Part shown: positions 4,087-62,750 of the stretch, in pieces
Layout: every line of letters starts with the position of its first letter
Position numbering within the stretch: the first letter of the stretch is position 1
DNA from: Eledone cirrhosa
Taxonomy: Eukaryota
Direction: 5' to 3'
Length of the DNA stretch: 64,000 nucleotides
Assembly: GCA_964016885.1 (NCBI GenBank)
Contig: OZ024764.1
Coordinates: 4,898,001-4,962,000, forward strand
Position numbers and translations under genes: made by a program
Notes under the pieces: generated by a model
What the model was told of the DNA's origin: nothing
The model's database searches: none
The model's input: only the letters and a program-made list of their open reading frames with translations

Positions 4087-4143
4087 GAACACCACTAATT
4101 TCTCTAATTACAGCCCTTCACTATCCCATTGCAAGAAATTTAC
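4087..4143 (+). CDS. Micro-exon E1 (class A), 57 nt, phase 2-2, NTTNFSNYSPSLSHCKKF; internal in-frame acceptor gives a 30-nt form at 4114-4143; weak donor
   Basis: tttaac...tttttctcattacAG acceptor; donor is GTGTTA, i.e. the usual GTAAGTGTTA minus 4 nt; homologous position to the other 11 exons. Confidence 0.55.
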
Positions 4144-6809: not shown

Positions 6810-6842
6810 CAACATCCCTATGATCGATTACAAGAAATTTAT
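6810..6842 (+). CDS. Micro-exon E2 (class A), 33 nt, phase 2-2, NIPMIDYKKF
   Basis: ttttttctcattacAG | caacatcc...aaatttat | GTAAGT. Confidence 0.8.
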
Positions 6843-8911: not shown

Positions 8912-10996
8912 ATAGGGTAGGTTACCATAGGGTAGGTTACTGTAGGGTAGGTTACCATAGGGTAGATAGTGTCTGGTAGGTTACCATAGGGTAGGTTACG
9001 ATAGGGTAGGATAGTGTTTGGTAGGTTACCATAGGGTAGGTTACTGTAGGGTAGGTTACAATAGGGTAGGATACTGTAGGGTAAGTTACTGGAGTGTAGG
9101 TTACGATAGGGTAGGTTACCATTGGGTAGGTTATTATAGGGTAGGTTACCACAGGGTAGGTTACCATAGAATAGGTTACTGTAGGGTATTTTACCATAGG
9201 GTATGTTACCATAGGGTAGGTTACCTTAAGGTAGGTTACCATAGGTAGGTTACCTTAGGGTAGGTGACCATAGTGTAGGTTACCATAGATTAGGTTCTGT
9301 ATGGTAGGTTAGGTTACTATAGGGTAGGTTACCATAGGGTAGGTTACGATAGGGTTGGTTGCCATAGGGTAGGTTACCATAGCGTAGGTTACTATTGGGT
9401 AGGTTACCATAGGGTAGGTTACTGTAGGTTAGGTTACGTAGGGTTGGTTACCATAGGGTAGGTTGCCATAGAGTAGGTTATTATAGGGTAGGTTACCATA
9501 AGGTAGATTACCTCAGGGTAGGTTACTGTAGGGTAGGTTACCATGGGGTAGGTTACCATAGGGTAGGTTACCATAGTGTAGGTTACCTTAAATTAGGTTA
9601 CCACAGGATAAGTTACCATATGGTAGGTTACTGTAGGTTAGGTTACCATAGGTCAGGTTACCATAGGGTAGGTTACTATAGGTTGCTACCATTGGGTAGG
9701 TTACTGTAGGGTAACATAGGTTACCATAGTGTAGGTTAATATAACATAGGTCACCATAGTGTAGGTTACTTTAGATTAGGTTACCATAGGGTAGGTTACC
9801 ACAGGATAGGTTACCATAGGGTAGGTTACTATAGGTTGTTACCATAGGGTAGGTTACGATATGGTTGGTTACCATAGTGTAGGTTACTATAACATTGGTT
9901 ACCATAGTGTAGGTTACCTTAATTTAGGTTACCATAGGTTAGGTTACCGTATCGTAGGTTACTGTAGGTTAGGTTACCATAGGGTAGGTTACTATAGGGT
10001 AGGCTACCAATGATAGGTTACCATAGGGTAGGTTACCACAGGATATGTTACCATAGGGTAGGTTACTGTAGGGTAGGTTACTATAACATAGGTCACCATA
10101 GTGTAGGTTACTTTACATTAGGTTACCATAGGGTAGGTTACCACAGGATAAGTTACCATATGGTAGGTTACTGTAGGTTGTTACCATAGGCTAGGTTACT
10201 ATAACATAGGTTACCAAAGTGTAGGTTTCTATAGGTTGTTACCATAGGGTAGGTTACTGTAGGGTAGGTTACCATAGGTTAGGTTACCATAGTGTAGGTT
10301 ACTGTAGGGTAGGTTACTGTAGGGTAGAATACTGTAGGGTAGGTTACCATAGGGTAGGATACTGTAGGGTAGGTTACTGTAGGGTAGGTTACTGTAGGGT
10401 AGGATACTGTAGGGTAGGTTACTGTAGGGTAGGTTACCATAGAGTAGGATACTGTAGGGTAGGTTACTGTAGGGTAGGATACTGTAGGGTAGGTTACCGT
10501 AGGGTAGGTTACTGTAGGGTAGGTTACCATAGGGTAGGATACTGTAGGGTAGGTTACTGTAGGGTAGGATACTGTAGGGTAGGATACTGTAGGGTAGGTT
10601 ACCATAGGGTAGGATACTGTAGGGTAGGATACTGTAGGGTAGGATACTGTAGGGTAGGATACTGTAGGGTAGGTTACTGTAGGGTAGGTTACCATATATT
10701 AGGATACTGTAGCGTAGGTTACTGTAGGGTAGGTTACCATAGGGTAGGTTATTATAGTATAGGTTACCGTAGGGTAGGTTTCCATGAAGTAGGTGACCAT
10801 AGGGTAGGTTACTATAAGTTAGGTTACCATAGGGTAGGTTTCCATGAAGTAGGTTACCACAGGGTAGGTTAACATAAATTAGGTTACCTTAGGGTAGGTT
10901 ACCATAAGTTAGGTTACCATAGGGTAGGTTACCATAAGTTAGGTTACCATAGGGTAGGTTACCATAAGTTAGGTTACCAGAGGGTAGGTTACCATA
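8912..10996. repeat. 15-bp satellite array
   Basis: ~2.1 kb of TAGGGTAGGTTAC(CA/TG) variants. Confidence 0.95.
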
Positions 10997-11299
10997 GGTT
11001 TGTTAAGGTTAGGCTAGGCTGGTCTACTCGGTGAGTTAAAACTCACTTGTGACTGTAGTGTTTTAGAATAAGTGTCTTAATCTTTCGTGCACCACTAAAT
11101 TTTTTAACTATTTCCCCTGAAACTGCCTTATTTTGGGGAGGTTATCTTATCAATCGAATAGCGTCCTAAATCTAAATTACACCTCAGAATTTTAGGGGCC
11201 ACGCTATGTACCGGATAGACTTGTACACCGGCATATATATATATGCAAAGAGAGCGAGAGAAACAGCGGGAGTGAGAGAGATACATTAAAACAATAACA

Positions 11300-12856: not shown

Positions 12857-12898
12857 GACTGATACAGAGGAGAGTATCGCTCCAGAAAAGAATGACGA
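12857..12898 (+). CDS. Micro-exon E3 (class B), 42 nt, phase 2-2, TDTEESIAPEKND
   Basis: ttttttgtaatcacAG | gactgata...aatgacga | GTAAGT. Confidence 0.8.
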
Positions 12899-15629: not shown

Positions 15630-17345
15630 ATAGGGTAGGTTACTGTTGGGTAGGTTACTGTAGCGTAGGTTACCATAGGGTAGGATAGTGTCTGGTAGGT
15701 TACCATAGGGTAGGTTACTGTAGGGTAGGTTACGATAGGGCAGGATACTGTAGGGTAAGTTACTGGAGGGTAGGTTACCATAGGGTAGGTTACCGTAGGG
15801 TAGGTTACCATTGGGTAGGTTATTATAGGGTAGGTTACTACAGGGTAGGTGACCATAGAATAGGTTACTGTAGGGTATTTTACCATAGGGTATGTTACCA
15901 TAGGGTAGGTTACCTTATGGTAGGTTACCTTAAGGTAGGTTACCATAGGGTAAGTTACCATAGGGTAGGTTACCTTAGGGTAGGTGACCATAGTGTAGGC
16001 TACCATAGGTTAGGTTCTGTATGGTAGGTTAGGTTACTATAGGGTAGGTTACCATAGGGTAGGTTACGATAGGGTTAGTTACCATAGGGTAGGTTACCAT
16101 AGCGTAGGTTACTATTGGGTAGGTTACCATAGGGTAGGTTACTGTAGGTTAGGTTACGTAGGGTAGGTTACCATAGGGTAGGTTGCCATAGAGTAGGTTA
16201 TTATAGGGTAGGTTACCATAAGGTAGATTACCTCAGGGTATGTTACCATATGGTAGGTTACCATATGGTAGGTTACCATAGGGTAGGTTACTGTAGGGTA
16301 GTTTACCATAGTGTAGGATACCTTAAATTAGGTTACCACAGGAAAAGTTACCATATGGTAGGTTACTGTAGGTTAGGTTACCATAGGGTAGGTTATCATA
16401 GGTTAGGTTACCAAAGGGTAGGTTACTATAGGTTGTTACCATTGGGTAGGTTACTGTAGGGTAACATAGGTTACGATAGTGTAGGTTAATATAACATAGG
16501 TCACCATAGTGTAGGTTACCTTAGATTAGGTTACCACAGGATAGGTTACCATATGGTAGGTTACTGTAGGTTAGGTCACCATAGGGTAGGTTACTATAGG
16601 GTAGGCTACTATAGGTTGTTACCATAGGGTAGGTTACTATAGGGTAGGCTACTATAGGTTGTTACCATAGGGTAGGTTACTATAGGTTGTTACCATAGAG
16701 TAGGTTACAATATGGTTGGTTACCATAGTGTAGGTTACTATAACATTGGTTACCATAGTGTAGGTTACCTTAATTTAGGTTACCATAGGTTAGGTTACCG
16801 TATCGTAGGTTACTGTAGGTTAGGTTACAATAGGGTAGGTTACTATAGGGTAGGCTACCAATGATAGGTTATGATGGGTTAGGTTCCATAGGGTAGGTTA
16901 CCACAGTATATGTTACCATATGGTAGGTTAGGTTACCATAGGGTAGGTCACCATAGTGTAGGTTACTTTAGATTAGGTTACCATAGGGTAGGTTACCACA
17001 GGATAAGTTACCATATGGTAGGTTACTATAACATAGGTTACCAAAGTGTAGGTTTCTATAGGTTGTTACCATAGGGTAGGTTACTGTAGGGTAGGTTACT
17101 GTAAGGTAGGTTACCATAGGGTAGGATACTGTAGGGTAGGTTACCAGAGGGTAGGTTATTATAGTATAGGTTACCGTAGGGTAGGTTTCCATGAAGTAGG
17201 TGACCATAGGGTAGGTTACTATAAGTTAGGTTACCATAGGGTAGGTTTCCATGAAGTAGGTTACCACAGGGTAGGTTAACATAAATTAGGTTACCTTAGG
17301 TTAGGTTACCATAAGTTAGGTTACCATACGGTAGGTTACCATAGG
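15630..17345. repeat. 15-bp satellite array
   Basis: Same monomer and same left and right flanking modules. Confidence 0.95.
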
Positions 17346-19265: not shown

Positions 19266-19353
19266 TGAACATAAATAAATAATGTAATATATATATATAT
19301 GTATGTGTGTGTGTATCTATTTATATATTTAACTATATTTTTTGTAATCACAG

Positions 19354-19395
19354 GACTGTTCCACTGCAGAGTTCCGCTAGAGGAAACAGTGACGA
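19354..19395 (+). CDS. Micro-exon E4 (class B), 42 nt, phase 2-2, TVPLQSSARGNSD
   Basis: ttttttgtaatcacAG | gactgttc...agtgacga | GTAAGT. Confidence 0.8.
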
Positions 19396-20282
19396 GTAAG
19401 TTTTAGTTTTACACACTATCTAACCATTATTCTATCTGTTCCTACCCGTCTCTCTCTCTCTTTATATATATATATTTATATATACTAAGGTGTATTATTG
19501 GTTGTGTAAAACGGTCCAATAAATTTTTGTTAGCAATATTAAGTTCTCCACGCTTTTGTATATCTCCAATTCCATTCAAGGGAACAGCTAGATGATGTAA
19601 AAAAATCCGAAGGCAAGGTAAAATTTCCAATCATTTTAATCATGTCGTGATTAAAATGATTGGAAATCTTACCTTCCCTTCGGATTTTCATTTTGATATA
19701 TATATATATATATATATGACTCTCTCTCTTATAAACCACGTTGGCTATTATGACACACTCTCCAACATAGAGAGCTATGTTGGCGATTATGACTCTCTCT
19801 CTCCCTCTCTATGTTGGCTATTATGACTCTCTCTCTCTCTATGTTGGCTATTATGACTCTCTCTCTCTCTATGTTGGCTATAATGACTCTCTCTCTCTAT
19901 CTATGTTGGCTATTATGTCTCTCTCTGTTCAAGGTTTATGAAGTTAGATGAACATCTTCAAAGTCCTCCCATATTCGCCTTGTCTAATATGCGTTCTTGT
20001 ACCTGATTATTTCCCCCAAATCTCCTGGGATGTTATAAACCATGATGGCTACCTATCTCACAATTTCTCTCCTGCCCACCCCCTCACACCACCATAGTCT
20101 ATTCGACCAATCAAACCTCAGAAACATGTCCCCACCCATTACCAACCCCAACAAACTCTGCCATTACTACTACTTCTACTTTTCTTCTAGCCCTTACCAG
20201 CCCCAACAAACCCTGACATTATTACTACTATTGTCCTTCTAGCTATGGGCTGAGGATAAATGGGGCTACCCCAAATTAATAA

Positions 20283-21492
20283 ATGAATATGAATCCGCGA
20301 GTTACCAAGCACCCATGCAAAGCTTTAATTCAGAGACAGGAAGCATACACACCCCACTGCAAAAATTCACCCTTTCCCACGAGTGGTGGCAAATGCCCAA
20401 AACTCCGAGTTGGAACCATCAATGTAAGCACAATGAAAGGAAGAGCAGGAGAAATTGTAGAGATGCTAGAGCGAAAGAAAATTGATGTATGCTGTGTGCA
20501 AGAGACTAGATGGAGAGCAGAGTCCGCTGGAGTCCTTGCAGGCAGAAGTCAGTGCTACCAATTTGTCTGGGTAGCAAATGACAACAGGATGGGAGGTGTA
20601 GCTATCCTATTAGCTGACAAATGGGTAGATAAGGTAATCTCAGTGAACAGGGTGAATGCAAGAATAATGAAACTTGGACTAGTCCTGAATAAAACAATTG
20701 CCACAATAATATCAGCTTACGCACCCCAATTGGGGTTGCCAGCTGACTATAGCGGGGAATTTAGTTTAGAGGTCGGTGTCCACCAGGGCTCTGTTCTTAG
20801 CCCACTCCTGTTCGTTAAAGTATTGCAAGCAATAATGGAGGTGATTATGACCGGATGCCCATGGGTACTCCTATATGCGGATCATCTCACACTTATAGCC
20901 GAATCTATGGTGGAACTATACTTGCTCAGTATGTAGGAAAGGAGTAGGCTGGCTGCAAAAGGTTTTCCCCTCAAAATGAAAAGCAGACTGTATGATGTGG
21001 GTATACGAATAGCAATGTTACATAGTAGTGAAACCTGGGCGCCGTCTGTGGAAGACTTGCATAGATTAGAAAGAAACGAAGCCTGCATGCTCCGATGGAT
21101 GTGTAATAGTAATATACGCGAACGGCAAAGCATAAATGAATTGAGAGAGTGACTGAGCATAAGAGGAATGAAATGTTGTGTGCAGGAGAGGATGTTGCAT
21201 TGGACATGTGATGCGTATGAAGGATGACAGCTGTATAAAAAGGTGTAGAGCAGTAGAAGTCGATGGAAGCCTTTGAGTGGGGAGACCCAAGAAGAGCTGG
21301 GATGAGGTGATAAAAGCCGGACTCACTGTAAATGAGGTTGGTGTTAGGAAGGGCATCCAGCTGTAGGAATCAAGCCAGAATCAGTTCCTGTATGAGCAAG
21401 ACAAGGTCAGCTGAACAGACACTGCCCACAACAGGACAACCCGTCTAACCCATGCTAGCGTGGAAGAATGGACGTAAAACAGTGATGAAGAT
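20283..21492 (+). mobile_element. Duplicate of the deleted RTE LINE at 14163
   Basis: Near-identical 217-aa ORF and tail. Confidence 0.9.
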
Positions 21493-21749
21493 GATATATC
21501 ATATATGCTAGTGTACTATTTGACATTTGGAGCCTAAAAATATCTCTCCAAAACCAGGGGTTGACTTGTCTGCTGAATATAGTATGTTACCTTTACCACT
21601 GAGGGGTAAACAGTGAAACTGCCTGCCTAACACTTGTTGTACACCACTTACCATAACTCTAGCAACCCACCACATTTATTTCTACTGAATCTCATATTTG
21701 TTAAGTTTAACGTAGAGATTATAGTAATATCAATGTCTTGCTGTAGCTT

Positions 21750-22767
21750 ATAGGGTAGGTTACTGTAGGGTAGGTTACTGTAGGGTAGGATACTGTCTGG
21801 TAGGTTACCATAGGGTAGGTTACTGTAGGGTAGGTTACTATGGGGTAGGTTACTGTAGGTAGGTTACCATAGGGTAGGTTACTGTAGTGTAGGTTACTGT
21901 AGGGTAGGTTACTATAGGGTAGGTTACTGTAGGGTAGATTACTCTAGGCTAGGTTACCATAGGGTAGGTTACTGTAGTGTAGGTTACCATAGAGTAGGTT
22001 ACCAGAGTAGGTGACCATAGGGTATGTTATTATAGGGTAGGTAACTGTAGGTTAGGTTACTATAGGGTAGGTTACCATAGTGTAGGTTACCTTATGGTAG
22101 GTTACCTTATGGTAAGTTACTATAGGGTAGGTTGCTATAGGGTAGGTTATCGTAGAGTAGGTTACCATAAGGTAGGTTACCGTAGGGTAGGGTATCATAG
22201 GATAGGTTACCATAAGGCAGGTTACCATAGAATAGGTTACCTTAGGGTAGTTTACTATAAGATAGGTTACCATAGTGTAGCTTACCATAGGGTAGGTTGT
22301 TACCATAGGCAAGGTTACTATAGGGTGGGTTACCATAGGGTAGTTTATAATATGGTTGGTTAACATAGTGTAGGTTACTATAACATAGGTTACCATAGTG
22401 TAGGATACCTTCGATTAGGTTACCATAGGGTAGGTTACTACAGGATAGGTTACCATATGGTAGGTTACCACAGGATAGGTTACCATAGGTTAGGTTAGCA
22501 ATGGGTAGGTTACTATAGGTTGTTACCATAAGGTAGGTTACTGTATGGTGGGTTACCATAGGGTAGGGTACCATAAAGTAGGTTATTATAGTGTAGGTTA
22601 CAATAGGGTAGGTTTCCTTAGGATAGGTAACCATAGGGTAGGTTACTATGGGGTAAGTTACCATGAAGTAGGTTACCATAGGGTAGGTTAACATAAGCTA
22701 GGTTACCTCAGGGTAGGTTACCATACCATAGGGTAGGTTACCATACCATAAAGTAGGTTACCATAGG
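21750..22767. repeat. 15-bp satellite array
   Basis: Same monomer and flanks. Confidence 0.95.
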
Positions 22768-25700
22768 TTTGTTAAGGTTAGGCTAGGCTGGTCTACTCGG
22801 TGAGTTAAAACTCACTTGTGACTGTAGTGTTTTAGAAAAAGTGTCTCAATCTTTCGTGCGCCACTAAATTTTTTAACTATTTCCCCTGAAACTGCCTTAT
22901 TTTTGGGGGTCATCTTATCAATCGAATAGCGTCCTAAATCTAAATTATACTTCAGAATTTTAGGGGCCGACCTATGTACCGGATAGACTTGTACACCGGC
23001 ATATATGGTATATATATATATGCATGGAGGCACATGGCTTAGTGGTTAGAGCATTGGTCATGCAATCGAAAGGTTGTGAGTTCAATTCTCAGACCGGGTG
23101 ATGTGTTGGTTCCTTGAGCAAGACACTTTATTTCACATTGCTCCAGTTTACTCAGCTGTAGAAATGAGATGATAGGGACTGGGGTCCCTATCATTCCACT
23201 GCAAAGTGGTCGTGGAGGTGCCATGGCAAAAAAAGCACCTAGCACTCACTGTAAATGAGGTTGGTGACAGGAAGGGCATACAGCTGTAGAAATCAAGCCA
23301 GAATCAGTTCCCGTCCCACCCTTGCAAGCAGGGAAAAGTGGACGTAAAATGAAATGATGAAAGAGAGATAGAGAGAAAGAGAGGGAGTGAGAGAGATACA
23401 TTAAAACAATAACAGAAGGTCTGACTGGAGAATTTACTTTAGAATTCCTTCACGGAAATGTCTTATTTATCTGTAACACAAACTTCAAAAAACAAGACAA
23501 CCACTTAATAACCGATAGATCATGTGAGCCCACCAGCTAGATAGATTTCATTGTTACCAGAAGACAGAGTGACTGTTATAAACACAAAGTCCTTCCCTAG
23601 TGAAGAATGCACCTCCCAACATACCTTAGAATACAACCTGGAAGAAAAGAGTATAGATCAAAATCAAAAGGTCTTAAAGTCAATTTGGTAAAGACTAAAG
23701 TTCTAGTAAGTAGAAAGGAAAACTGGGCCCAGATCTCTTCAGGTAAACTGTCCTGCTCAGTGGGCAGAAAAGGAGTAGGTAGAAATTCCATCCTATGTCC
23801 CATATAGAAATGATGGGTACACAAAAGATGTCGTGGGATCTCAGGAAGGCTAACAAAGAACGTAGCTTCTACATGTGGCCAGTGAACAGGGGCAGGAAAT
23901 ATCAAGAGCTCTCGGGTTACAATCTCCTTCAAATACCCGAAAGTCTCTGTAGAGGTGGTAGATAGTTTCTGTTACTTAGGTGACTAAATCAGCAGTGGAG
24001 GAGGGTGGTCCAAAAACTCAGTAACAAGAGTGAGATTAGATTGGAGAAAGTGCAGGGATCTACTACTACTGCTAACTACAAAACATTTTTCCCTCAAAAT
24101 GAAGGGCAGACTGTATGATGCAGGTATACAAACAACAATGTTGCACAGCAGCGAGACCTGGGCACTGTGTGTAGAAGATCTGTAAAGATTGGAAAGAAAT
24201 GAAGCCTCCATGCTTCAATGGATGTGCCATAGTAATATATGCAAATGGCAAAACATAGGTTACCATTGGGTAGGTTACTGTAGGGTAGGGTACCATAGGG
24301 TGGGTTACCATAGCGTAGGTTACTGAATGGTAGGTTACATTTTGTTAGGTTACTGTAGGGTAGGTTACCATAGGGTAGGTTACCATAGGGTGGGTTACCA
24401 TAGGGTAGGTTACTGTAGGGTAGGTTACCATAGGGTAGTTATGTAGGGTAGGTTACTGTAGGGTAGGTTACCATAGAGTAGGATACTGTAGGGTAGGTTA
24501 CCATAGGGTAGTTATGTAGGGTAGGTTACCATAGTGTAGGTTACTGCAGGGTAGGTTACCATAGAGTAGGATACTGTAGGGTAGGTTACCATAGGTTAGG
24601 TCACTGTAGGGTAGGTTACCATAGGGTAGGTTATTATAGGGTAGGTTACCATAGGTTAGGTTACTATAGGGTTGGTTGCCATAGGGTATGTTACCATAGG
24701 GTAGGTTACTATAAGGTAGGTTACCATACCATAGGTTAGGTTACCATATGTTTGTTAAGGTTAGGCTAGGCTGGTTTACTCGGTGAGTTAAAACTCACTT
24801 GCGACTGTAGTGTTTTAGAAGAAGTGTCTTAATCTTTAGTGCGCCACTAAATTTTTTAACTATTTCCCCTGAAACTGCCTTATTTTTTGGGTGTCGTCTT
24901 ATGAATCGAATAGTGTCGTATAGGACTATCTGGCATGTTTTCTATGGCTGGATGCCCTTCCTAACACCAACCACGTTTACAGTGTGGGGACTGGGAGGTT
25001 TTTACCATGTTAACTACACGGCCAATTTACAGCGTGGACTGTGTGTTTTATTGTCATGACACCTACACAACCTCATTTATTTAGGACTGGATGTTGTGTG
25101 ACCAACATAATTTTACAGAGATGGGGGTGGGAGTAGTGGGCTGGGGGCGTATATTTGGTTAAGAGGTGCCTACTGACTGTAGGTTTCGCTTTGTACTTAG
25201 GCAAGGGTGGTCTTCTGTATTACTGCGTAGCGCCAAAGATCTCGGTTCAGTGACATTGTTTTGGAGAGGTGTAAGTGTGTGAGATCGGAATTTATCAATT
25301 CGTCCCAGGGTTTTCTGGGTCTGCCTACTCCGTGGCTACCATCTATTTTGATCGCCCTGCACTTTTTTATACAGCTGTCGTCTTTCATGCGCATCACGTG
25401 ACCATACCAACGTAGTCTTCTCTCGAGTAAACAACATCTGATCCCTCTTATTCCTAATTTCTCACTTAGTTCATTTATGCTTTGCCGTTCACGTATATTA
25501 CTATTACACATCCAGCGGAGCATGCAAACTTCATTCCTCTCCAGTCTGCGTATATCCTCTGCACACAATGCCCAAGTCTCACTGCCATGTAACATTGTTG
25601 TTCGTATGCAGGCATCATACAGCCTGCCTTTCATTTTTAGAGAGAACCCTTTAGCGGCCAATCGTACAATGAAAAGAGCGTCTGTGATACTTTTACCTGA

Positions 25701-27527
25701 CACAAACCCAAACTGCATTTCATCTAGATCAATTCTCTCTCTGATTAGTTGCGCTATTACTTTTTCTGTGACCCTCATGAACTGGTCAATTAATTTAATG
25801 CCTCTATAGTTTCCCCTATCTAGGGCATCTCCTTTACCCTTGTAGCAGTTAATGATGATGATATATATATAAAAGAAATAGGATTTCGCTTCAAGCATAT
25901 CTTTATACAATATCTCACCACCACTGGCCATGTTTTTTGTGGTCTTCCTTTTACTGGGATTTTTTAGCACCTCTTTACCCAGCGGTCATCCTCGATGCAC
26001 ATCACTTGTCCATACCATCTCAGTCTTCTCTCCTGCACACCACAACTCATCCCCAGTTTCTCTCTCAACTCATCTATGGTCTTGTTGTTCACGCACATTG
26101 ACACACACACATATATATATTAATTCTATTGACTGATTAATAGCTCTTGTTAATTTTAAAACCATTCTGTTGAGAGCTTAATTCGTTTTGTGATATTTTG
26201 CAATAACACACATACTGAATTCATCCGCCAAAACTAAGGGTTGCTCCCCCTCACCCCTTGTCAAGCCCCACGTGGGTTTTGATAACGGTCAGTCCTTGGC
26301 TTGGCACTGAACTAAAAGCCTGTTGAGAAAGTGACTTCCTTGTTCGATCATCATACCAAAAGCTTAACATTATTTGTCTAAGTAGACAGTACTTGATTTA
26401 GGAGTTGCAGAAACCCAATACTGGATATTACCAACCTTCCAGGGGTCCAGGTATAATTTTCCATCATATTTTATTTGTTTGACCCGAATTACTTGGTCGT
26501 GTCTACGGCTGTGTGGATAATGGTTTAACCATCATCTCAATGTGTTTCGCCTTTTAACTTATGTTGTTGCTCTAGTTCACTAGCTTCTATGGAGCGCTTG
26601 CCACACATCTCGGAAGTTGTTTTTCGCTAATTTCCAATAGCAGAAATGCGATTCTCGCTAATTTATATATATATACACGTATAAGGGATAACAAAATATC
26701 GTTATAGGTAATCCAGGTAGAGGTTGTGAATACTCTGTATTGTGGTTAGTCTTAGTCTACGGCGTTGTTTGACTCAACAAGAGGTTTCCGTAGGTGGCAA
26801 GTATTTGAGTTCTCTTGAATTCCTATGTAAGTTTATCTTGGAGTAATAATATTGAAAGTGTGAAGAATAACATGGTCAACAGTACAAAAATAGGTTTTTA
26901 TTTACAGTATTAACAATTGTTTCACTGATTAAGTTGTCTAAAAATTGCTGAAAACTTAAAGCTGTGCCACTCAATCTACTATATATATTGGAAGTGGTCG
27001 GACGTTGTATATTTAAGTAAATAAGTAGGTGTAGTCGGATAAACGTCGAAACGGCTTGGTGGAATGCAGCGAAAATTTACACAGTTATGCAGAATTGTAG
27101 CAGTTAATGATGATGATGATATATATGTAAAAGAAATAGGATTTCGCTTCAAGCATATCTTTATACAATATGTATAAATATTTCGTATCTCCAAAGAAAT
27201 ACGGTTTTAGGAAGCCTTAGCTCTGCAAACCCTGGGGGGATAACGTCCTCTGGTGATGTCCAGCAGAAGCAAGGGGGACAACCGTCTATGCATTTCAGGC
27301 TTAACTGGCCATCGTCTGGACAGTCCCTCCCACTGCTTGCGACTGCTGGCCAGTTAAGCGTGAAATGCATAGACGGTTGTCCCCCTTGCTTCTGCTGGAC
27401 ATCACCAGAGGCCTTGAAACCCTAAGTCCCTTTTGCTCTGTGTATGAACAGAAATAAATAATGTAATATATATATATGTATGTGTGTGTATCTATTTATA
27501 TATTTAACTATATTTTTCTCTTCACAG

Positions 27528-27554
27528 CTGGTTTAATAGACTAAAGAAATTGAT
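27528..27554 (+). CDS. Micro-exon E5 (class A), 27 nt, phase 2-2, WFNRLKKL
   Basis: tttttctcttcacAG | ctggttta...aaattgat | GTGAGT; both other frames contain stops. Confidence 0.8.
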
Positions 27555-28388
27555 GTGAGTGTTACCTTAACATACTGTTTACCATTGTTTAATCTGCTCA
27601 TTCTACTACCTCTCCCTTTATACACACACACATATATATACACCTATATATGTATATATACACATATATACATATATATATACACACATATATATATAAT
27701 CACATATATATATACATATATACAAGCGAGACATGGCCTGCTGACCAATCTCGCCTTAAGTGGGACAAAACCGTCCAACCCATGCTAGCATGGAAGATGG
27801 ACTTTAAATGATGATGATATATACACACTGACACATATATATACATACATATATATACACATATATATACGCATATATTTATATATATATATGAGTTCAA
27901 GTCCGCCAAGGTTAACTTTGCCTTTCATCTTTACGAGGTCGATAAAATAAAGTACCAGTGGTGCACTGGGGTAATCGCTGGCCTTGTGCCAAAAGTAGAA
28001 ACTATATTTATATATATATATATATAACCAAAGATTAATATGGTTTGTTGATTACTTAATGAATACAGTTTTGCAATAGATTAGAAGCACTCAACAGTGA
28101 AAGTTTTCCTGGACTTTTTAATATTAACAAATGAAAAATCTTCTCATAATCAAAATATATACTTTATTATATACATTTCAAAGGTATATGACATACCTCT
28201 ACGGTCTTGATTCTTCAATTCCAGTATTGCAGTCACTGCCAATACTGGAATTGAAGAATCAAGACCGTAGCGCTATGTCATAATCATATATTTTATCTGA
28301 TGAGGACGTACTGAAAAAACAACAATATATATAATAAAGTATATATTTTGATGATGCGAATATTTTTCATTTGTTAACATTTTGAATA

Positions 28389-28429
<41 letters not shown>

Positions 28430-28466
28430 ATTAAATAAATGGAAAACTATATTTATAAAACCATAT

Positions 28467-28533
28467 TTATTTCATTATATATATTTCGGGGATATCATAT
28501 TAACAATATGCTATGCCTTCATCAGACAAAATA
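28467..28533 (-). ncRNA. Minimal type I hammerhead ribozyme-like motif (Penelope-like remnant), degenerate stem II
   Basis: Minus strand UAUUUUGU-CUGAUGA-AGGCAUAGCAUAUU(GUU)AAUAUGAUAUCCCC-GAAA-UAUAUAUA^AUGAAAUA. Confidence 0.55.
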
Positions 28534-28915
28534 CAATATAAACAGTTTTATAGATAAATATATTCGACATACCGTAATAGACATCGACATCATTTGAAGA
28601 GGTTTACGCTAGCAGTGAAAATTTTATACAGAGAGAAAGAAAGAGAAAAAGAAAGAAAGACAAAACGAAGAAAAGGAAGAAAAAGAAGAAAAAGAAAAAG
28701 AAGAAATGCAGAAATGCATGGAACAAAATAGAGAGATGGAAAAATAGATAAAGCGAAGAGCTTCATGTAAAGAAACAGATATATATATATATATATATAG
28801 AGAGAGAGGAAATGTTATTTAATATTGTAAATATACTCCAAATATTTGTCGAGTGCTTTTATATCAGTTATAAATATTTACTAGTTGTAACCCAACAATT
28901 TTTTAAATATAACTT

Positions 28916-28972
<57 letters not shown>

Positions 28973-29286
28973 AAAATGAATAATGAAAGAGTTGCAAGCC
29001 GTTAAAACATATCTTTATAAAGCTCTTACATATGTTATATATATATATATATCATCATTATCATTTTATGTCCGCTTCTCCCTGCTTGCAAGGGTTGGGC
29101 TCTCACCACCACCGGCCATGTTTTTCGTGGTCTTCCTTTTACTGGGATTTTTTAGCACCTCTTTACCCAGCGGTCATCCTCGATGCGCATCACTTGTCCA
29201 TACCATCTGTCTTCTCTCCTGCACATCACAACTTATCCCCAGTTTCTCTCTCAACTCATCTATGGTCTTGTTGATCACGCACATTG

Positions 29287-29318
<32 letters not shown>

Positions 29319-29826
29319 TAATTCTATTGACTGATTAATAGCTCTTGTTAATTTTAAAACCATTCTGTTGAGAGCTTAATTCGTTTTGTGATATTTTGCA
29401 ATAACACACATACTGAATTCATCCGCCAAAACTAAGGGTTGCTCCCCCTCCACCCTTGTCAAGCCCCACGTGGGTTTTGATAGCGGTCAGTCCTTGGCTT
29501 GGCACTGAACTAAAAGCCTGTTGAGAAAGTGACTTCCTTGTTCGATCATCATACCAAAAGCTTAACATTATTTGTCTAAGTAGACAGTACTTGATTTAGG
29601 AGTTGCAGAAACCCAATACTGGATATTACCAACCTTCCAGGGGTCCGGGTATAATTTTCCATCATATTTTATTTGTTTGACCCGAATTACTTGGTCGTTT
29701 CTATGGCTGTGTGGATAATTGTTTAACCATCGTCTCAGTGTGTTTGGCCTTTTACTTATAGGTAAAATGAATAATGAAAGAGTTGCAAGCCGTTAAAACA
29801 TATCTTTATAAAGCTCTTACATATGT

Positions 29827-29861
<35 letters not shown>

Positions 29862-30095
29862 CATCATTATCATTTTATGTCCGCTTTTCCCTGCTTGCAA
29901 GGGTAGGGCTCTCACCACCACCGGCCATGTTTTTCGTGGTCTTCCTTTTACTGGGATTTTTTAGCACCTCTTTACCCAGCGGTCATCCTCGATGCGCATC
30001 ACTTGTCCATACCATCTGTGTTCTCTCCTGCACATCACAACTTATCCCCAGTTTCTCTCTCAACTCATCTATGGTCTTGGCGTTCACGCACATTG

Positions 30096-30127
<32 letters not shown>

Positions 30128-31537
30128 TAATTCTATTGACTGATTAATAGCTCTTGTTAATTTTAAAACCATTCTGTTGAGAGCTTAATTCGTTTTGTGA
30201 TATTTTGCAATTTTGCAATAACACACATACTGAATGCATCCGCCAAAACTAAGGGTTGCCCCCCCTCCCCCCCTTGTCAAGCCCCACGTGGGTTTTGATA
30301 ACGGTCAGTCCTTGGCTTAGCACTGAACTAAAAGCCTGTTGAGAAAGTGACTTCCTTGTTCGATCATCATACCAAAAGCTTAACATTATTTGTCTAAGTA
30401 GACAGTACTTGATTTAGGAGTTGCAGAAACCCAATACTGGATATTACCAACCTTCCAGGGGTCCGGGTATAATTTTCCATCATATTTTATTTGTTTTACT
30501 CGAATTACTTGGTCGTGTCTATGGCTGTGCGGATAATTGTTTAACCATCGTCTCAGTGTGTTTGGCCTTTTAACTTATGTTGTTGCTCTAGTTCACTAGC
30601 TTCTATGGAGCGCTTGCCACACATCTCGGAAGTTGTTTTTCGTTAATTTCCAATAGCAGAAATGCAATTCTCGCTAATTTATATATATATATATACACGT
30701 ATAAGGGATAACAAAATATCGTTATAGGTAATCCAGGTAGAAGTTGTGAATACTCTGTATTGTGGTTAGTCTTAGTCTACGGCGTTGTTTGACTCAACAA
30801 GAGGTTTCCGTAGGTGGCAAGTATTTGAGTTCTCTTGAATTTCTATGTAAGTTTATCTTGGAGTAATAATATTGAAAGCGTGAAGAATAACATGGTCAAC
30901 AGTACAAAAGAAGGTTTTTATTTACAGTATTAACAATTGTTTCACTGATTAAGTTGTCTAAAAATCGCTGAAAACTTAAAGCTGTGCCACTCAATCTACT
31001 ATATATATTGGAAGTGGTCGGACGTTGTATATTTAAGTAAATAAGTAGGTGTAGTCGGATAAACGTCGAAACGGCTTGGTAGAATGCAGCGAAAATTTAC
31101 ACAGTTATGCAGAATTGTAGCAGTTAATGATGATATATATGTAAAAGAAATAGGATTTCGCTTCAAGCATATCTTTATACAATATGTATAAATATTTTGT
31201 ATCCAAAGAAATACGGTTTTAGGAAGCCTTAGCTCTGCAAACCCTGGGGGGATAACGTCCTCTGGTGATGTCCAGCAGAAGCAAGGGGGACAACCGTCTA
31301 TGCATTTCAGGCTTAACTGGCCATCGTCTGGACAGTCCCTCCCACTGCTTGCGACTGCTGGCCAGTTAAGCGTGAAATGCATAGACGGTTGTCCCCCTTG
31401 CTTCTGCTGGACATCACCAGAGGCCTTGAAACCCTAAGTCCCTTTTGCTCTGTGTATGAACAGAAATAAATAATGTAATATATATATATGTATGTGTGTA
31501 TCTATTTATATATTTAACTATATTTTTCTCATTACAG

Positions 31538-31570
31538 GCCAAATTATTTCCCCGAGTACAAGAAAGTTAT
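31538..31570 (+). CDS. Micro-exon E6 (class A), 33 nt, phase 2-2, PNYFPEYKKV
   Basis: tttttctcattacAG | gccaaatt...aaagttat | GTAAGT. Confidence 0.8.
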
Positions 31571-33209
31571 GTAAGTGTTACCTTAACAAACTGTCTAACC
31601 ATTGTTTAATCTGCTCCTCCCTCTACCTCTCCCTTTATACACACACACACATATATACCCCTATATATATATGTATACACACACACACACAAATATATAC
31701 ACATATATACATATATATATACACACATATATATACATATATACAAGCGAGACACGGCCTGCTGACCAATCTCGTCTTAAGTGGGACAAAACCGTCCAAC
31801 CCATGCTAGCATGGAAGATAGACTTTAAATGATGATGATATATATACACTGACACATATATATACATATATACAAATATATATACGCATATATCTATATA
31901 TATATATATGAGTTCAAGTCCGCCGAGGTTAACTTTGCCTTTCATCTTTACGAGGTCGATAAAATAAAGTACCAGTGGTGCACTGGGGTAATCGCTGGCC
32001 TTCTGCCAAAAGTAGAAACTATAATTATATATATATAACCAAAGATTAATATGGTTCGTTGATTACTCAACGAATACAGTTGTACAATAGATTAGAAGCA
32101 CTCAACAGTGAAATTTTCCTGGAGTTTTTAATATTATTCAAAATATTAACAAATGAAAAATATTCTCATAATCAAAATATATACTTTATTATATATATTT
32201 CAAAGGTATATGACATACCTCTACGGTCTTGATTATTCAATTCCACTATTGGCAGTGACTATATATTTATAGGCAAAATGAATAATGAAAGAGTTGCAAG
32301 CCGTTAAAACATATCTTTATAAAGCTCTTACATATGTTATATATATATATATCATCATCATCAGCAGCGAGACCTGGGCACTGTGTGTAGAAGATCTGTA
32401 AAGATTGGAAAGAAATGAGCCTCCATGCTTCAATGGATGTGCCATAGTAATATATGCAAATGGCAAAACATAAATGTACTGTGAGAGGATTTAGGCATAA
32501 GAGGGATTAGATGCAGTGTGCAGGAGTGGGATTGTTTTGGTATAGACATGTGATGTGTATGAAGGGTGACAGCTGTATAAAAAGGTGCCAAACGCACAAA
32601 GTTGACAGAGGCCGTGGAGTGGGCAGGTCTAGGAAGACTTGGGATGAGGTAAGGAAAGCTGATTTTGCACAATTACACCTAGCTAAGGCAATGACACAGG
32701 ATGGTGACCTCTGGCGCTATGCACAATTATAGAGGACTACATCCACAATCCACCAGACATTTTCCCTACCAAGACCCCACACAAGTTCCCAAACCTCACC
32801 ATAAAGTGGTCCCGCTGCAGCCATGACAAATATGTCCAGTCCACACTGTACAGTGGTATTGTAGGTGTCCTGCCAAAAATCAATATTGGGCCTTAAAACC
32901 TTGAGTCCCTTTTGTTCTGTGTATGAACATAAATAATTGTTTCTACTTTTGGCACAAGGCCAGCAATTATCCAGTGCATTACTGGTACTTTAATTTATCG
33001 ACCCCGTAAGGATGAAAGGCAAAGTTAACCTTGGCGGAATTTGAACTCAGATCATACAGGGAGGTAACTTTGCTTCAAAGCATGGCGTCCGACCCTCTAC
33101 CGATACTGCCAATCCACCGCCTGAACATAAATAAATAATGTAATATATATATATATGTATGTGTGTGTGTATCTATTTATATATTTAACTATATTTTTTG
33201 TAATCACAG

Positions 33210-33251
33210 GTTTGATTCACTGCCGAGGTCCACTATAGGAAACAGTGACGA
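33210..33251 (+). CDS. Micro-exon E7 (class B), 42 nt, phase 2-2, FDSLPRSTIGNSD
   Basis: ttttttgtaatcacAG | gtttgatt...agtgacga | GTAAGT; both other frames contain stops. Confidence 0.8.
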
Positions 33252-40478: not shown

Positions 40479-40508
40479 GAACACCACTAATTTCTCCGAA
40501 AAATTTCT
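40479..40508 (+). CDS. Micro-exon E8 (class A), 30 nt, phase 2-2, NTTNFSEKF
   Basis: tttttctcattacAG | gaacacca...aaatttct | GTAAGT. Confidence 0.8.
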
Positions 40509-46780: not shown

Positions 46781-46822
46781 GACTGATACAGAGGAGGGTA
46801 CCGCTCCAGAAAATAATGAGGA
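46781..46822 (+). CDS. Micro-exon E9 (class B), 42 nt, phase 2-2, TDTEEGTAPENNE
   Basis: ttttttgtaatcacAG | gactgata...aatgagga | GTAAGT. Confidence 0.8.
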
Positions 46823-54552: not shown

Positions 54553-54630
54553 GAACACCACTAATATCTCCGAAAAATTTATTACTACTCTTTTATGCAG
54601 CCTTCCCTCCAATGATTACAAGAAATTTAT
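54553..54630 (+). CDS. Micro-exon E10 (class A), 78 nt, phase 2-2, NTTNISEKFITTLLCSLPSNDYKKF; internal in-frame acceptor gives a 30-nt form at 54601-54630
   Basis: tttctcattacAG | gaacacca...aaatttat | GTAAGT; internal ctcttttatgcAG ending at 54600. Confidence 0.75.
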
Positions 54631-57339: not shown

Positions 57340-57375
57340 GAACACCACTACTTCAATTGATTCCAATAAATTGAT
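57340..57375 (+). CDS. Micro-exon E11 (class A), 36 nt, phase 2-2, NTTTSIDSNKL
   Basis: ttttttctcattacAG | gaacacca...aaattgat | GTAAGT; both other frames contain stops. Confidence 0.8.
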
Positions 57376-62708: not shown

Positions 62709-62750
62709 GACTGATACAGAGGAGGGTACCGCTCCAGAAAATAATGACGA
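62709..62750 (+). CDS. Micro-exon E12 (class B), 42 nt, phase 2-2, TDTEEGTAPENND
   Basis: ttttttgtaatcacAG | gactgata...aatgacga | GTACGT. Confidence 0.75.

Follow-up and report, generated by a model that had tools for sequence, protein, structure and literature searches.

Arthropod Dscam1 is a receptor gene with tandem, phase-compatible alternative exons, which are mutually exclusive via RNA pairing and encode extracellular Ig halves. To our knowledge, the known cases of exons outrunning their introns (toxins, the major histocompatibility complex, schistosome micro-exon genes or MEGs) concern exposed or secreted surfaces. Among the M13 peptidases, the ECE-1 isoforms are described, in the accessible part of the source, as differing only in their cytosolic N-terminus and as localising differently (PMC4815360), and expansions of inactive M13 members exist in insects according to the available text of PMC2259306. 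Here we analyse a stretch of 64,000 nucleotides (nt) from Eledone cirrhosa, the window (contig OZ024764.1, below C25; C25:4898001-4962000 of an assembly of 3.0 Gb). The whole window, 1-64000, lies on the forward strand inside a micro-exon array (C25:4871418-5399532) of a host gene that encodes a divergent, probably inactive M13 homologue. The array contains two classes of units, A and B, and our main result is that class B is probably under positive selection.

A motif scan over 1,064 kb of fetched sequence identified 118 units: 103 in the array that contains the window (R1, 4.87-5.40 Mb), 6 in a paralogous array on the minus strand at 7.23-7.30 Mb (R2) and 9 in another at 25.08-25.16 Mb (R3), all three on C25. 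Four further remnants without acceptor exist beyond these 118. R1 comprises 49 class A and 54 class B units, of which 12 lie in the window, and its micro-exons encode 50 distinct peptides. The exons are 27-78 nt long (42 nt in class B) and the spacing between units ranges from 953 to 9,942 nt. Frame 1 (phase 2-2) is stop-free in 118/118 units, the other two frames in only 20/118 and 77/118, and a shuffle null over 23 exon lineages gives p ~6e-9 for the open frame; the other reading frames and the minus strand were ruled out as coding. The length is divisible by 3 in 115 of the 118 units, and in the remaining 3 as well if a weak donor is used, while the donor reads GTAAGT in 111. Since no exon ends in TA or TG, no exon-exon junction can make a stop. 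The micro-exons are thus very probably coding, and the proposal of the first-pass annotation that such segments are functional is upheld by the single open frame as well as by the family-wide tests below.

That annotation had drawn attention to pairs of class B exons differing only at amino-acid-changing sites between nearly identical flanks, and a base-for-base recount agrees with it. E4 (19354-19395, forward strand like all units of the window; 42 nt, TVPLQSSARGNSD; CAG acceptor, GTAAGT donor, phase 2-2) and E7 (33210-33251, 42 nt, FDSLPRSTIGNSD) differ at 8/42 nt. Of the 13 codons, 7 encode another amino acid as a result (T>F, V>D, P>S, Q>P, S>R, A>T, R>I), and 0 differences are synonymous. 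The 4 differences between E3 (12857-12898, 42 nt, TDTEESIAPEKND) and E9 (46781-46822, 42 nt, TDTEEGTAPENNE) are all amino-acid-changing (S>G, I>T, K>N, D>E), as is the single one, E>D, between E9 and E12 (62709-62750, 42 nt, TDTEEGTAPENND, donor GTACGT). Around E4 and E7, 115 nt upstream are identical and the first 65 nt downstream contain 1 difference. Over the repeat-masked flanks of this pair 12 of 744 columns differ (1.6%), and at this rate the 8/42 of the exon has a binomial p of 3e-7. Zero synonymous changes among 8 has p=0.067, so the E4/E7 pair alone does not show dN>dS; the whole class B family does.

Across 4,039 alignments of duplicated units with one another, the share of differing columns is 15.0% within exons and 1.6% outside them. 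Peaks of at least 10 differences per 42 columns number 77 in exons and 0 outside them, that is, no equally sharp peak was found at non-exonic positions; at lower thresholds the exon and non-exon counts are 152 versus 40 (at least 8), 203 versus 240 (at least 7) and 248 versus 764 (at least 6). These counts are pair-level, from non-independent pairs with quiet flanks, exons make up about 1.1% of the unmasked sequence, and the non-exon peaks of at least 7 fall into 7 site classes. The exon peak ends at the exon border without a clear shoulder. Assembly error as a cause was rejected for E4 and several other exon types by the DNA contigs of X1-X3 (one sample, possibly the assembly's own source), which carry E4 unchanged at a depth of 88-95 together with other class B types. 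The E7 type itself was unseen among the listed records; a sequence differing from it by a single base is present at 4 further places of the assembly. Run X4, labelled another organism, shares both the acceptor and the donor flank over window 19310-19450 at a depth of 52-68; its exon ends (loose ends) are unlike, which hints that a related species has this array with a different set of exons.

Over 539 pairs of class B units, the proportion of differing synonymous sites (pS) is 0.011, the flank rate 0.015 and the proportion of differing nonsynonymous sites (pN) 0.113, pS not exceeding the flank rate in any of the four bins of flank divergence. Along the 52 edges of a spanning tree built from the flanks, the ratio pN/pS is 3.4, with pS 3 times as high as flank divergence. 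Derived alleles were counted in the two main subfamilies (53 units), a third subfamily (4 units) and R3 (7 units) being left out. The 13 codons hold 28 of them, distributed as 12/11/5 over codon positions 1/2/3, with those at third positions mostly amino-acid-changing; 1-2 are synonymous versus 26% expected (p=0.002-0.011). By columns, the derived alleles are 31 in 42 for the exon and 55 in 557 for the flank. Finally, codon models on 17 haplotypes yielded a dN/dS ratio (omega) of 10-12, with likelihood ratio test p-values of 0.0008 (kappa 1) and 0.0003 (kappa 1.87). A forced multiple alignment was rejected for the flanks because blocks without homology distorted it, giving flank rates of 0.13-0.38 and a significant exon excess in only 1/4 subfamilies, and the flank comparison was finally made by alignment-anchored tests. 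These family-wide tests make us fairly confident that class B is positively selected. The strong diversifying selection suggested by the first-pass annotation is therefore supported for class B, on other evidence than the pairs it cited, which are too small alone.

Class A shows a different pattern. Its silent sites are 13-fold above the flanks (pS 0.127 versus 0.009), 12 of 35 single-step changes are synonymous (p=0.93; omega ~0.7), and among its variants are in-frame deletions and other length changes, fusions, and replacements of several bases at once. Class A thus outruns its flanks as well, 13-20-fold, with silent sites included, so an exon in this array that is faster than its intron does not on its own prove selection on new point mutations, which qualifies the step from fast exons to selection taken in the first-pass annotation. 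In our analysis, homogenisation of introns and flanks, or segment exchange, is the better fit for class A. If this were applied to the whole array, the exons would be old rather than fast, gene conversion overwriting the introns and selection merely blocking conversion of the exons, a situation that has a precedent in the primate L/M opsins (available text of PMC3213168) and that would fit the class A figures. It does not fit class B, whose silent sites match the flank rate in every bin, with an excess confined to replacement sites, and the peak stops at the exon border; moreover, such conversion would still require selection for exon diversity. We consider it improbable as the general explanation. 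A mutational process targeted to the exons (short segment exchange, slippage or local hypermutation), with selection only purging stops and frameshifts, would account for the many length changes, fusions and multi-base replacements of class A, and a similar 'segment switch' is reported for snake toxin exons in the accessible part of PMC7285919. Being blind to the code, it would strike third positions equally, contrary to the 12/11/5 of class B and to its mostly replacing third-position changes, and we find it very improbable. Positive selection on class B is hence the reading retained below.

Downstream of the arrays, R1 and R3 share sequence in which a phase-2 exon encodes a hydrophobic segment and a further 19 exons lead to the stop. 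In R1, the former is the transmembrane exon at C25:5413283-5413395, which starts in phase 2, matching the micro-exon frame, and the last of the 19 ectodomain exons starts at C25:5629413; both are on the forward strand outside the window. So is a candidate first exon (ATG at C25:4858997, weak phase-2 donor), which sits in an upstream block specific to this gene, with copies at R1, R2 (two of them) and R4 and nowhere else. The latter, a fourth paralog at 7.50-7.55 Mb, carries just one micro-exon, RRWGKWPAKHKCC, immediately ahead of the membrane anchor, and the four paralogs of this one genome carry 103 (R1), 6 (R2), 9 (R3) and 1 (R4) micro-exons. MSRNIY was discarded as first exon of R4, as it lies in a dispersed repeat with 41 occurrences among the matches listed. 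The gene models of the four paralogs are open for 612-635 codons with every exon indel in frame, the R2 stop coming one codon early and one R3 exon being unlocated and treated as unknown. Of the constant exons, the one for the anchor diverges most between the paralogs, in length and in sequence, while its intron flanks are still alignable.

The R1 model matches an Octopus vulgaris ECE-2-like protein over residues 161-630 (E=5e-32, 24% identity), and its last exon matches human neprilysin in PDB (E=1e-4). Single-exon profile matches are weak, yet in the correct order: PF05649 for 1/9 exons (E=0.011) and PF01431 for 3/7 exons (E=4e-5 to 0.017, all under the curated cut-off). ENIAD occurs in all four models and VNAFY likewise, as INAFY in R3; both are given as M13 motifs in the accessible text of PMC2259306. 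A PGRP or lectin ectodomain, an early idea from one exon, was dropped when more exons matched M13. The zinc motif in the assembly sequence is HKIFH in R1, HQIFH in R4 and HEIFH in R2 and R3, so HExxH with its catalytic Glu is absent from R1 (Lys) and R4 (Gln) and present in the other two. As this Glu polarises the catalytic water (PMC2259306, available text), the R1 protein is predicted to be inactive, and we conclude that it is a divergent, probably enzymatically inactive homologue of the M13 family with a complete ectodomain. The ectodomain shows the trend of class B more weakly: omega is 1.5, with p=0.02 at kappa 2.65 but p=0.37 at kappa 1, its fourfold sites diverge like introns, and its second positions are 1.4 to 3 times higher.

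The loci listed by genome-wide searches with PF01431 and PF05649 were all canonical M13 ones, on C2, C3 and C24, and this gene was not among them. With exons of 27-78 nt spread over 530 kb of repeats and an ectodomain missed by genome-wide Pfam searches, the gene is easy to miss. The canonical genes lie at C24:7.50-7.83 Mb and on C2 and C3; HELTH/HEITH motifs are present in the two C24 loci read, and the nearest proteins to one canonical M13 exon from this genome are those of Octopus vulgaris (87%) and Argonauta (76%). An ortholog search with a 59-residue ectodomain exon gave 0 useful among 43 candidates, otherwise 2 unrelated repeat proteins, and no Atlas match of at least 0.9.

Around the gene, R1 (4.76-5.65 Mb, forward) and R2 (7.14-7.39 Mb, minus) match at ~99% identity over at least 85 kb on the upstream side and 20 kb on the downstream side, yet have 103 and 6 units, so copy number changes fast. 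Their zinc motifs differ, Lys versus Glu, despite these collinear flanks. R2 may be a recent inverted duplication, making a second locus, or the other haplotype.

Each of the four paralog models has one hydrophobic segment (hydropathy KD19 2.7-3.0; next best 1.2-1.5) with basic residues before it, and the domain after this anchor keeps 5-6 cysteines, paired, and 5-8 N-x-S/T motifs. No signal peptide was found in the candidate first exon. With only one anchor, placed after the array, preceded by basic residues and followed by the M13 domain, we predict that the array encodes a cytosolic tail; the micro-exons would likely form the cytosolic N-terminal tail of a type II membrane protein. A Tyr-x-x-hydrophobic motif, a possible sorting or signalling motif, is found in 21/49 class A exons. 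Most exons of class A look like basic, membrane-proximal segments that could replace one another and that end in KK followed by a hydrophobic residue. Were the N-terminal region luminal or secreted instead, as a glycosylated stalk or as a polyprotein cut at KK into short peptides in the manner of a venom or gamete-surface protein, its Thr/Ser/Asn-rich composition and the N-x-S/T motifs of class A would be readily explained. Neprilysin-like transcripts are also reported in octopus salivary and digestive glands in the part of PMC12607849 available, where they are not shown to come from this gene. With the sole hydrophobic segment following the array, an M13 domain behind it bearing the marks of the outside part, no signal peptide in the candidate first exon and N-x-S/T in 0/54 class B exons, we leave this possibility a slimmer chance still than exon-targeted mutation. 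The cytosolic placement also qualifies the likeness to venom, immune or gamete-recognition proteins drawn in the first-pass annotation: the variable part, N-terminal to the anchor, is predicted to be cytosolic rather than an exposed surface.

Any subset of the exons joins without frameshift or stop, so that skipping would yield many tails on one ectodomain. The joints listed for four sets of contigs, from DNA or of unknown kind, included no splice joint, a result without bearing on expression. In the model we propose, one ancestral juxtamembrane exon, still single in R4, would have been multiplied by unequal crossing-over of exon-plus-intron blocks of 1-10 kb. Selection would favour new tails since the tail meets a changing intracellular partner, which may be sorting or signalling adaptors or a pathogen protein targeting them. 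The protein would work as a binding or receptor-like molecule, not as a peptidase; that the ECE-1 tail alone sets localisation and that class A holds Tyr-x-x-hydrophobic motifs favour such a protein with a diversified tail. Taken as a whole (class B under positive selection, exons used as alternative cassettes, many cytosolic tails on one probably inactive M13 ectodomain, a changing intracellular partner), we regard this model as evenly poised between right and wrong.

Its main rival accepts the same gene and the same selection on class B and holds that all or most exons are included, giving a giant low-complexity cytosolic tail of ~1,360 residues whose length varies by unequal crossing-over; diversity would then lie between repeats and alleles rather than between splice forms. 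Consistent with this, the splice signals are strong and identical nearly throughout (the 111 GTAAGT donors), and 102 R1 exons read in order encode 1,363 residues without a stop or a hydrophobic segment. Nor was selector or docking pairing found in a scan of two unit cores. The giant tail is harder to reconcile with the survival of dead or damaged units in the array (one with a GAAAGT donor, 3 whose donors are damaged and the 4 acceptor-less remnants), with paralogs that manage with 1, 6 and 9 exons, and with class A exons most of which look interchangeable. We judge it unlikely, though it deserves serious consideration.

Several results weigh against the alternative-cassette model itself. A conservative network count over all four class B subfamilies gives 4 silent of 33-35 changes (p=0.04-0.08), unit pairs are non-independent and gene conversion can bias codon models, and class A lacks dN>dS. 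The first coding exon is a candidate only, with a weak donor, and no R3 counterpart of it was found. The array is rich in Thr, Ser and Asn (36%) and 26/49 class A exons have an N-x-S/T motif, features that suit a glycosylated segment outside the cell better than a cytosolic tail. Docking-site-like complementarity between a unit and the introns adjoining constant exons, the sign of a Dscam-type switch, was not found in one blastn-short run of two unit cores against two such introns, where the sole match was of 31 nt and in a common repeat. Finally, the selective agent is a guess.

The remaining units of the window all belong to class A. E1 (4087-4143) has a small deletion that damages its donor, and measures 57 nt if a weak GT 4 nt downstream serves. 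E2 (6810-6842, 33 nt, NIPMIDYKKF), E5 (27528-27554, 27 nt, WFNRLKKL), E6 (31538-31570, 33 nt, PNYFPEYKKV), E8 (40479-40508, 30 nt, NTTNFSEKF) and E11 (57340-57375, 36 nt, NTTTSIDSNKL) are plain micro-exons. E10 (54553-54630, 78 nt) is apparently made of two fused short units with an acceptor-like linker; in such 78-nt exons either half is matched by shorter class A types and the acceptor-like linker is kept inside. Ahead of class A acceptors, at a distance of 110-270 nt, there is a near-perfect inverted repeat whose arms measure ~65 nt (window 27255-27410 and others); it may form a pre-mRNA hairpin or simply be a miniature inverted-repeat transposable element carried along. The introns are filled by a 15-bp minisatellite, ATAGGGTAGGTTACC, and by decayed fragments resembling long interspersed nuclear elements (class assigned by eye), copied with the units (window 8912-10998, 15630-17345, 21750-22725 and others). 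Farther downstream, the ectodomain intron C25:5458432-5617358 is filled by a 46-bp satellite that repeats the next exon's own acceptor and first bases. At least 2,176 acceptor-like copies were counted in the fetched parts of its ~159 kb in R1, far fewer in the paralogs; they represent thousands of decoy 3' splice sites ahead of a 46-nt exon.

A description of this array was not found in our literature search, most subscription papers and supplements being outside it; an octopus genome paper could list the gene. Among described systems, the protein resembles M13 and ECE-1a-d in its predicted type II layout, in which a short tail at the N-terminus is followed by a single anchor and a large ectodomain, and in having VNAFY, the zinc motif and ENIAD in order, as far as the available text of PMC2259306 and PMC4815360 describes them. 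ECE-1 has four tails in the accessible part of PMC4815360, against 103 cassette-like exons, 50 distinct R1 peptides and probable positive selection here. The R1 protein also has only 24% identity to the octopus ECE-like protein, and the catalytic Glu is replaced in R1 and R4 and kept in R2 and R3. The schistosome MEGs and SmVAL6, in the parts of PMC4350168 and PMC10526429 available, share tiny symmetrical exons, which are found here too (27-78 nt, phase 2-2, 115/118 multiples of 3), long repeat-rich introns, raised dN/dS and variation expected from alternative splicing, and VAL-6 also joins a micro-exon region to a folded domain (PMC4350168, PMC10526429, same parts). The same text presents MEGs as having a signal peptide, as secreted and as flatworm-restricted, with a dN/dS of ~1.1; our gene has an anchor after the array, 19 ordinary exons, a 600-residue ectodomain and a ratio of 10-12 in class B. 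Unlike those of MEGs, which encode the greater part of the protein, its micro-exons are recent near-identical tandem blocks, predicted to lie on the cytosolic side of a membrane protein. As in snake-venom PLA2 and three-finger toxins (accelerated exon evolution, ASSET), introns are more conserved than coding exons and KA is at or above KS; the toxins, however, are separate paralogous genes encoding secreted proteins (PMC7285919, accessible part), whereas the present case, known from sequence alone, concerns exons within one gene. Primate L/M opsins also have exons more divergent than introns between tandem copies, and in the available text of PMC3213168 their silent exon sites exceed introns too, which matches class A and not class B. 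With Dscam1 the locus shares, as far as can be read from the assembly, tandem duplicated phase-compatible exons in one gene; the exons of Dscam1 are longer, those here measure 27-78 nt and are predicted to be intracellular, and no docking site was found in the two-core scan. One may picture an 'inside-out Dscam', in which at least 50 alternative cytosolic tails, one class of them strongly selected, would be spliced combinatorially onto a dead neprilysin ectodomain to give a diversified receptor engaged in an arms race inside the cell, a picture that we hold possible but doubtful. Here the modules under the strongest probable selection (omega ~10) are 13 residues long and predicted to lie in the cytosol, and they occur in a family of peptidases in which the N-terminal tail is known to direct localisation. 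If splicing were confirmed, this would be a new way to build receptor diversity in cephalopods and, with paralogs of 1, 6, 9 and 103 exons in one genome, a clean test system.

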